Positions 12,482-13,707 of a stretch of 64,000 bases of DNA are shown here, in pieces; within the stretch, counting starts at the first letter, position 1, and every line of letters begins with the position of its first letter. The notes beneath the pieces were generated by a model, which saw only the letters and a list, made by a program, of their open reading frames with translations, did not search any database and was not told where the DNA came from. A program made the position numbers and the translations under genes. The stretch comes from a virus (taxonomy: Duplodnaviria; Caudoviricetes), in the IMG/VR virus record IMGVR_UViG_3300042470_001171, positions 8,814 through 72,813 of that record. One strand, written 5' to 3'.

Positions 12482-13063
12482 GGGCTCAGGCGTAGTCACC
12501 GCCGCCACCGGCAGCAACGACAGCAGGCCGCAGCCGTACGCCTTTTCCCGGCCAATGCCGTTGACCATGGCATCAGCTAGCCGCTGGCTATGGGTCACCG
12601 TCAGATACCCGTCCACTACCGATACCTCAATGGGGAATGAACGAGTGTAATGCTCACGGCGCACATGATCATGGTGTTTTTGCACTCGCACCTGGCGCAC
12701 CTCGAAGGTAGCACCTAGCCGATCCTCCCTGGCGGCCAGCCACTCAGCGGCAGGCACCGGATAGCGCCGACACCGGTCATCCCGGTTACTTTGGGCCACA
12801 GAGTTGAGCCCCAGGCGGAAGCGGTAACGCTCCCCAACATTAAGCAGGTTATGCCTAAACTCCAGCTTCACCTGGGCCTCATAGGCTTTAGGCCACTTGG
12901 GCTTTTCTACCGACTGCACCAGGATGGATCCGCCGTCAACCCGGAACAATGCCCCGACTTGGCTGCGGGGGTCTGGGCCCAGATCGTCAGGAAAGCCCGC
13001 CATCACATAGCGGTGCAGGCTTCCATGGCCATCTGGCCGGGCAAAACGAGAAAGGTATAGCAT
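12449..13063 (-). CDS. cas6: Type I-E Cas6 (Cse3/CasE) crRNA endoribonuclease
   Basis: YLSR, LH, LFRVD, ILVQS..KP.W, YRFRL..N, DGYLTV, Gly-rich GIGREKAYGCGLL. Confidence 0.95.
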   Translation of the reverse strand: MLYLSRFARPDGHGSLHRYVMAGFPDDLGPDPRSQVGALFRVDGGSILVQSVEKPKWPKAYEAQVKLEFRHNLLNVGERYRFRLGLNSVAQSNRDDRCRRYPVPAAEWLAAREDRLGATFEVRQVRVQKHHDHVRREHYTRSFPIEVSVVDGYLTVTHSQRLADAMVNGIGREKAYGCGLLSLLPVAAVTTPEPAPALVGVSQG

Positions 13064-13707
13064 TATCGTGATCCTCCGTAAACGGTTCTGTAATTGGCTT
13101 GCCGCAGCCAGTCCACCGCAGCAGTCTGGCTGGACAAAGTAAATGTGTTGCTATCGAACCGCACCACTTGCAGCTCGACGCCCAGGCGGCCCTGGACTAG
13201 CTGGGCACCCCGGGCCTGACGTTGGCCACCTACGATCAGGCGGTGCAGAAAAGCTTGGTCTTCGGCGGCAATAGGGCCATCCTGAAAACTGCGCTTGATG
13301 CGCCCCACATGATCGCAAATGTCTGCCTTGGCCCGCTCGAAGCTGATCGGCACCCCAGCAATGCAATAAGTTGGTCGGGGCACCGCTGGCACTATCTCCC
13401 AGGTGAAGCTGGACAGCTCCCCGCTATCGCGGTGGGTCCGTAAGCGTTCCACCGTGGACTTAGCCGGTAGGCCAGTCTCATGGAATAGCACCAGGTGCTT
13501 TTTGCTGGGCCGAGTCCAGCGTCGTTGGTAACTGTTGCCCTGGCCGATGGCCTCCCGCACCTGGTCGGCAGGCTTTACCTCCACCAGCGTGTCGTACTGA
13601 GCACCGTCGACGACTATGTCAATGCGGTCCTGACCTACGGGCACCTCAGTGCGGCCACCATGGCGGACGGCCCAAGCGTCCCGAATAATGTCATGGGGGA
13701 AGTTCAT
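13063..13707 (-). CDS. PD-(D/E)XK-family nuclease, translationally coupled to cas6
   Basis: E..RIDIVV..LVEVK..AIGQGNSY (D, ExK, QxxxY); stop overlaps the cas6 start. Confidence 0.75.
   Translation of the reverse strand: MNFPHDIIRDAWAVRHGGRTEVPVGQDRIDIVVDGAQYDTLVEVKPADQVREAIGQGNSYQRRWTRPSKKHLVLFHETGLPAKSTVERLRTHRDSGELSSFTWEIVPAVPRPTYCIAGVPISFERAKADICDHVGRIKRSFQDGPIAAEDQAFLHRLIVGGQRQARGAQLVQGRLGVELQVVRFDSNTFTLSSQTAAVDWLRQANYRTVYGGSR

Follow-up and report, generated by a model that had tools for sequence, protein, structure and literature searches.

The 64,000-nucleotide (nt) stretch of phage DNA analysed here (hereafter the window) covers positions 8,814 to 72,813 of the Caudoviricetes record IMGVR_UViG_3300042470_001171, which is 72.8 kb long and estimated to be 79% complete. 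It carries a compact CRISPR-Cas module in which a gene for a predicted nuclease, here called X, stands first in the cas operon, directly before cas6e. We favour the explanation that X is the dedicated partner of a Cascade complex that was derived from type I-E and has no Cas3, and that in most lineages X would be the DNA-cutting effector of this complex. In our judgement this explanation has roughly an even chance of being correct.

An earlier note on this DNA, made from the letters alone, had described X as a PD-(D/E)XK nuclease with the motif E..D..EVK..QxxxY in its first approximately 110 amino acids (aa). All of these residues were found (E21, D30, E43-V44-K45 and Q56-G-N-S-Y60), and D10 is present in the first helix as well. 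The D / ExK / QxxxY pattern is typical of RecB-, Cas4- and NucS-type nucleases. In an alignment of 17 sequences reaching down to 24% identity, D10, E21, D30, E43, V44, K45, Q56, Y60 and Y114 were invariant. After addition of the sequences from two distant loci described below, L010 and L013, both K45 and Y60 were retained in 17 of 18 aligned rows (22-100% identity). The ratio of nonsynonymous to synonymous substitution rates was 0.13-0.16 for X, compared with 0.08-0.21 for cas5, cas6 and cas7. This fact indicates that X is under purifying selection like its cas neighbours. The placement of the gene was also as the note had stated. X heads the operon as a gene separate from the Cascade subunits (13707 to 13063 on the minus strand, which the note had left unstated), and its stop codon overlaps the cas6 start by one shared base (TAATG). 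The plus strand reads gcattatcgt at 13060-13069; on the minus strand, the TAA of X occupies 13065-13063 and the ATG of cas6e 13063-13061.

The structure predicted for X supports the nuclease assignment. With a diverse alignment (A3), AlphaFold gave a two-domain model with a predicted local distance difference test (pLDDT) of 93.9 and a predicted template modelling score of 0.87. The diverse alignment was required, the model from a shallow alignment (A1) having a pLDDT of only 43.7. Residues 1-110 are predicted to form an alpha-beta-beta-beta-alpha-beta core, which is the PD-(D/E)XK fold. In this core D30 and E43-V-K45 lie on strands 2 and 3, and Q56xxxY60 on the next helix, which is the arrangement of the catalytic D, (D/E)xK and QxxxY in such nucleases. 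The highest-scoring structure matches of this domain were NucS (2vld, 10.4; root-mean-square deviation 2.2, 93 residues aligned) and EndoMS (5gke, 10.2), followed by AF1548 (8.7), the group of Can1, Can2, Card1 and Cdn1 (7-8.1), CdiA-CT toxins (7.7-8.0), XisH (7.4-7.5) and Cas4 (4ic1, 5.5). X therefore appears, by its modelled fold and its motif residues, to be a real and intact PD-(D/E)XK nuclease, as the note had proposed.

The remaining half of X is predicted to be an alpha/beta domain with five beta strands, ending in a conserved W-L-R-x-x-H/N-Y helix. Its likeness to a DUF3223/DCL-like domain, first noticed by eye, is supported in one respect and not in another. The predicted fold appears to resemble the sole solved DUF3223 structure (2K0M), with a Z score in the range where the search tool warns of a common arrangement; no sequence-profile match accompanies it. 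The isolated C-terminal domains of four X members gave no Pfam or PADLOC match at E values up to 10, the whole proteins likewise gave none for DUF3223, and a search of the ESM Atlas with the C-terminal part returned no usable match.

Conservation of the gene neighbourhood is the second line of evidence. A word-based search found 25 close relatives of X (77-100% identity), and when 1.84 billion representatives were searched exhaustively with HMMER, 18 matches resulted, 13 of them full-length at 24-38% identity. Approximately 15 distant homologues are counted in all. Some relatives of X and of the short Cas8e lie on contigs of equal length (2253 and 2286 bases), a hint that they may share contigs. 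Metagenome loci (L007-L013) were recovered by searching contigs for the short Cas8e described below. In all seven, an X homologue lies between cas6 and the divergent cas8e, and the order cas8e-short, divergent from X-cas6-cas7-cas5, is the same in the window and in both related viral contigs that cover the region. The note's own ground for refutation, that homologous cas modules usually lack X, was thus not borne out in the closest of them. Three of these loci (L007-L009) are close relatives of the window module. L010-L012 form a second lineage, in which identity to the window is 58% for Cas5, 48% for Cas7, 48-55% for Cas8e, approximately 40% for Cas6 and 25-26% for X; an overlap of the X stop with the aligned start of cas6 is seen once more in L010. 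A third lineage is represented by L013, a 109-kb contig (Cas5 54%, Cas7 41%, Cas8e 41%, Cas6 36%, X approximately 21%). Its X was missed by tblastn and was clear by profile comparison with hhalign (probability 99.7, E value 1.4e-26, 216 columns).

These facts bear on the possibility that X is an unrelated phage nuclease, of a homing, host-DNA-degrading or anti-defence kind, that merely lies beside the cas genes. One relative (P0041) has an X-type nuclease domain behind a KilA-N DNA-binding domain, and the best viral structure matches in BFVD were the giant-virus KilA-N proteins Q6XM53, A0A2P0VMM5 and A0A6G6ADR0 (20-25% identity; the output gives no aligned ranges), probably because the nuclease domain occurs joined to KilA-N as in P0041. 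Deleted and broken forms of X, described below, would also fit a gene of this kind. However, the position, the orientation and the overlap with cas6 are kept over three lineages although X falls to 21-26% identity, and X in full was seen in no other context. A tblastn search gave no X match in GenBank phages or PLSDB plasmids. Pattern scans, which need exact short peptides and so are no proof of absence, did not find X in one genome per prokaryote species (A1, A4), in viral contigs (A4) or in metagenome contigs of the Joint Genome Institute (A4). We consider a chance neighbour very unlikely. In the same phage and plasmid collections, the best Cas7 match had at most 34% identity, so that no close annotated module appears to be present in them.

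The third line of evidence concerns the composition of the module. Cas7e, Cas5e and Cas6e all belong to I-E families, with NCBIfam scores over the cut-offs and with Pfam and PADLOC in agreement. The 272-aa protein encoded divergently from X is not a full-length Cas8e (Cse1) of type I-E, and the window protein itself matched no family in Pfam, NCBIfam or PADLOC. Its relatives at 38-53% identity carry PF09481 Cse1 above the cut-off, matching only profile positions 1-56 and approximately 98-233 of 450. Since these relatives match only the N-terminal half of the profile, the gene is best described as a half-length Cas8e without the C-terminal part. The Cas3 core (TIGR01587) gave no match in any of the four related virus records, whose estimated completeness is 38-79% and one of which has terminal repeats; the control matched 14 of 14 genomes. 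In the 20.7 kb of L013, no open reading frame (ORF) of 400 aa or more was found other than cas7 (398 aa; ORFs were listed from 180 aa). Cas1 (PF01867) was likewise not matched in the four records. Neither was Cse2/Cas11 (PF09485), in a search of limited sensitivity whose control gave a match in a single genome of 14 and none in E. coli.

The truncated Cas8e and the undetected Cas11 raise the question of whether X might be mainly architectural or regulatory. X would then stand in for Cas11 and the C-terminal bundle of Cas8e, Cascade would silence its targets by binding, and the nuclease site would be secondary or vestigial. Type I and type IV systems without Cas3 that act by binding do exist on mobile elements. 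In L013, moreover, X is full length with K45 replaced by Val and Y60 by Asp. This copy is probably not an active nuclease, judging from its sequence, and part of the role of X may therefore be non-catalytic. That it has been retained would be less surprising for a protein that belongs to the structure of a complex. On the other hand, a vestigial site would not be expected to keep its catalytic residues in 17 of 18 aligned sequences, the C-terminal domain is predicted to be alpha/beta and not a Cas11-like helical bundle, and the low sensitivity of the Cse2 search reduces the weight of its negative result. A mainly architectural X seems to us unlikely.

The arrays of the module were analysed next to the protein genes. 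Two arrays lie inverted to each other around the module, with CCCCAC-N4-GTGGGG hairpins as repeats and, in array 1, units of 62-74 nt; stem-loop repeats in units of approximately 61 nt are the form expected of type I-E. L010 and L012 have a regular 29-nt repeat with a 62-64-nt period on both flanks, and the arrays of L013 have a period of 62-63 nt. In L013 (6776-7241 and 9150-9866), the operon itself contains an eight-repeat array (period 63 nt), placed between cas5 and cas7, and X there is without the catalytic Lys and the Tyr of QxxxY. Of the eight long spacers in array 1, the related phage L002 has only the last. In array 2, one DNA run (X1) showed at least six different inserts of 29-37 nt at a single position flanked by one pair of repeats (15213-15249). 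These two observations suggest that spacer content turns over in the population, though no cas1 was found in the four virus records; adaptation by a host type I-E Cas1-Cas2 is a possibility. The long spacers matched nothing but their own copy in the window and the recovered loci, and one leader-side spacer had no match in an exact search of viral contigs.

Such turnover could be taken to mean that X is a Cas4-like nuclease that processes prespacers and aids the host Cas1-Cas2 in loading spacers into the phage arrays. The RecB/Cas4-type motifs D, ExK and QxxxY, the variation of the arrays between related phages and the missing cas1 would be compatible with such a role. X is, however, without the Fe-S cysteines of Cas4: in accord with what the note had claimed, there is no Cas4-type cysteine cluster, and the two cysteines present (C115 and C131) are not conserved in the wide alignment. 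X is also coupled to effector genes, not to adaptation genes, and type I-E systems function without Cas4. Among the explanations weighed here, we regard this one as the least probable.

It is worth noting that Cas6e-type hairpins (CCCCAC-N3-4-GTGGGG with a GTNNNTC-like handle) occur at approximately 11 loci of the window, often between genes. Many of these scattered hairpins are spaced by only 22-30 nt, which is too short for type I-E guides. Several ORFs, including cas6e (12449-12475), read into a repeat hairpin at their ends, and the translated P-x-x-V-G-V can mislead C-terminal alignments. The P-x-x-V-G-V ends seen in distant homologues of X might suggest that X abuts an array; this reading was rejected, because Cas6 ends alike and hairpins follow many phage genes.

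X might instead act on RNA, trimming or turning over crRNAs (CRISPR RNAs) or hairpin-flanked phage transcripts held by its DUF3223-like domain. In the available parts of two preprints, DUF3223 is reported as an RNA-binding or RNA-chaperone domain (bioRxiv 10.64898/2026.01.19.700320, 10.1101/2022.06.07.494954). The many intergenic hairpins would offer substrates, and distant X homologues and cas6 itself run into such a hairpin at their ends. Hairpin cleavage is already served by Cas6e, however, and the arrays of L010-L013 are ordinary, so that the hairpin network is no constant partner of X. We judge a role on RNA to be improbable, to about the same degree as a mainly architectural one.

Several points weigh against X as the effector of Cascade. 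The link between X and Cascade rests on gene context, conservation and fold. The synteny comes from three lineages, all reached through one marker, the short Cas8e, so that a module without X could be missed. X diverges fastest in the module: between the window and L010 its identity is 26%, and that of the Cas proteins 41-58%. X scores below the cut-off of every Pfam family: the best curated-family match was the SfsA RE domain (17.5 bits, cut-off 22.8), and the 17 members gave only sub-threshold matches (SfsA, 5; HSDR_N, 3; HSDR_N_2, 2; YhcG_C; Hjc). NCBIfam and PHROGs gave no match for X, and phmmer searches with X and with the family profile against the sequences of solved structures gave matches at chance level only. 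Among close relatives, P0026 is a 68-aa form of X with residues 29-174 removed in frame, and P0029 is a broken form. These facts suggest that X has been lost in some related phages and that cutting by X is not indispensable everywhere. To these must be added the L013 copy with its two replaced catalytic residues, and the RNA binding described for DUF3223 in the part of the first preprint available, by which RNA is a possible substrate of X. A predicted complex of X with the short Cas8e, Cas5 and Cas6 scored 0.00; controls were not run for this prediction, and it weighs neither way.

If X is the effector of a Cas3-less Cascade, as we favour, the module could work in the following way. Cas6e would cleave the repeat hairpins, and on each crRNA of approximately 32 nt a small Cascade would form from the half-length Cas8e, the short Cas5e, the Cas7e backbone and Cas6e, without Cas11, and would pair with matching DNA. 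X, produced together with Cas6e from the overlapping codons, would attach through its DUF3223-like C-terminal domain to the complex, the displaced strand or the crRNA. It would then cut the target with its NucS/RecB-type PD-(D/E)XK site, formed by D30, E43 and K45 together with D10, E21, Q56 and Y60. X would in this way stand in for the Cas3 helicase-nuclease, and perhaps fill the space of Cas11 and of the absent C-terminal bundle of Cas8e. Binding of X to Cascade, DNA as its substrate and dependence on the guide are the presumed elements of this scheme; the proposal of the note, an endonuclease recruited by Cascade, is supported in part.

The coordinates of the module and of the other features are collected in Table 1. 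The module is arranged as an array, cas5e-cas7e-cas6e-X on the minus strand, the divergent half-length cas8e and a second array. The start of cas5e was placed at the ATG at 11063 on the basis of an alignment with L002, the listed ORF beginning at the GTG at 11084. Short Cas5e profiles of PADLOC cover the Cas5 of the module end to end, so that related cas genes were probably known to the builders of these profiles. Between the starts of X and cas8e, which point away from each other, a consensus scan gave no sigma-70-like site, and across 12300-14000 it gave nothing. The 183-aa gene beyond cas5e encodes a protein that is rich in proline in its middle and has a Rho_N/SAP-like tail at its C-terminus; a homologue is present in L008, and ORFs of equal size are present in L002 and L003. 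It could be a further component of the module.

Table 1. Positions of the module genes, arrays and repeat-type hairpins in the window.
Feature	Positions	Strand	Description
X	13063..13707	-	214-aa ATG ORF; two-domain protein (predicted); first gene of the cas operon
X, residues 1-110	13378..13707	-	PD-(D/E)XK nuclease domain (predicted)
X, residues 111-214	13066..13377	-	alpha/beta C-terminal domain (predicted), DUF3223/DeCL/HamC-like in fold
cas6e	12449..13063	-	204 aa; PF08798 1.6e-31; TIGR01907 52.2 bits (cut-off 45.2); PADLOC Cas6e
cas7e	11056..12309	-	417 aa; PF09344 1.3e-67; TIGR01869 184.2 bits (cut-off 178)
cas5e, short form	10617..11063	-	148 aa; TIGR01868 107.9 bits (cut-off 69); PADLOC short Cas5e profiles 1.5e-40
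cas8e, half-length	13778..14596	+	272 aa; divergent from X; relatives match PF09481 Cse1
X-cas8e intergenic region	13708..13777	.	70 bp
183-aa gene 3' of cas5e	9925..10476	-	Rho_N-like tail, 23.1 bits, below the cut-off of 24.9
CRISPR array 1	8547..9216	-	11 repeats in hairpin form; spacers of 28-37 nt in 8 units
CRISPR array 2, inverted orientation	15096..15673	+	2 units with long spacers, followed by short ones in which 22-35 nt separate the hairpins
Three repeat-type hairpins between cas6e and cas7e	12347..12440	-	
Three repeat-type hairpins after cas5e	10517..10609	-	
Hairpin loci in the window	2628, 2692, 5379, 8547-9216, 10517-10609, 12347-12440, 15096-15673, 16797-16866, 19748-19804, 28840-29076, 63416-63507		

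Public data labelled lake or freshwater contain the stretch in 20 runs from 19 studies; three of these runs are RNA libraries. In two studies, contigs of RNA libraries fall on X (X19, 12635-13674; X18, 13059-13316; X20, two 151-nt pieces), and one such contig spans the junction of cas6 and X. This cover is compatible with expression of X; the data are contigs, and carry-over of DNA is possible. Stretches without RNA cover, for example 10001-10603, carry no meaning. In addition, one study has two runs whose RNA-library contigs stop or start at 12350-12351 and at 10617-10625, at the hairpin clusters that flank cas7-cas5, and a DNA contig bridges 12257-12500. The ends could be a weak hint at cutting of the cas messenger RNA by Cas6, or could be assembly breaks at repeats.

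If X is the effector, the module would be among the smallest complete type I interference modules, with five genes and 3,780 coding bases. Its nuclease would be separable, which is relevant to compact RNA-guided tools for cutting DNA, and Cas3 would have been replaced repeatedly and independently on mobile elements. Abundant lake phages carry the module. Since the arrays hold strain-specific spacers, its probable use is in conflict among viruses or with the host. The DUF3223-like domain fused to a nuclease also provides a testable lead to the role of the HamC and DeCL domains. If it is truly an adaptor, the DUF3223/HamC fold could be a general one that couples PD-(D/E)XK nucleases to nucleic-acid-sensing machines, and this would bear on type II Hachiman.

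Several known protein families can be compared with X. Like Cas4, X has RecB-type PD-(D/E)XK motifs and is associated with cas genes; unlike Cas4, it is without the four conserved Fe-S cysteines, and there is no association with cas1 in any of the four virus records. The C-terminal nuclease domain of NucS/EndoMS, the nearest structure, shares 12% identity with X; NucS has, in addition, an N-terminal DNA-binding and dimerisation domain that X is without. To our knowledge, NucS is an enzyme for repair of mismatched and branched DNA with no link to CRISPR. Can1, Can2, Card1 and Cdn1 (6sce, 8bao, 7bdv, 6xl1, 8z4i) have CARF-type sensors and are activated by cyclic oligoadenylates of type III systems, whereas X has neither feature and belongs to a type I module. 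In contrast to DUF3223/DeCL/HamC proteins (PF11523; 2K0M), the C-terminal domain of X matches no sequence profile of the family and is fused to a nuclease.

The closest described systems are type I variants with an added nuclease domain. In the available parts of the reports, HNH domains replace Cas3 in variants of type I-E (Cas5-HNH) and I-F1 (Cas8-HNH) (PMC10910872, PMC11459484), and the nuclease of the Cas5-HNH Cascade is in contact with Cas6 and Cas11 (PMC11794572). As far as these parts describe them, the HNH-Cascades resemble the X module in being compact type I Cascades without Cas3, equipped with a small nuclease of another fold and built on the common I-E backbone Cas5e/Cas7e/Cas6e. 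They differ in that HNH is inserted in a backbone subunit and that Cas11 and a full-length Cas8 are present; the X module has a separate PD-(D/E)XK protein with a second domain, a half-length Cas8e and no Cas11 found. No HNH was found in the Cas5 of the module (148-155 aa), which matches Cas5 profiles only. Activity has been demonstrated for the HNH variants, whereas X is known here from its sequence and a model. A VRR-NUC PD-(D/E)XK domain fused to Cas11 in I-E systems is described in one sentence of the available part of PMC10910872. It shares with X the tie between a PD-(D/E)XK nuclease and a type I-E effector module; X differs from what is described there in being a free-standing gene with an alpha/beta second domain and without a VRR_NUC or Cse2 match. 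The literature searched, as far as its text was available, contains no account of the present module; this sentence is the nearest, and the supplementary loci of the same paper (Data S2, Figs S12-S14) might list it.

The module is set apart from these systems by a free-standing NucS-like nuclease with a DUF3223-like domain, by a halved Cas8e and by the absence of a detected Cas11. It is conceivable, though we would put it at somewhat less than an even chance, that X represents a third independent arming of a Cas3-less type I Cascade, beside the inserted HNH and the VRR-NUC-Cas11 fusion. In this third form, a free-standing NucS-like nuclease would dock by a DeCL/HamC-like adaptor in place of Cas11 and the lost half of Cas8e, and would make guide-directed cuts on a five-gene mini-Cascade of approximately 3.8 kb.

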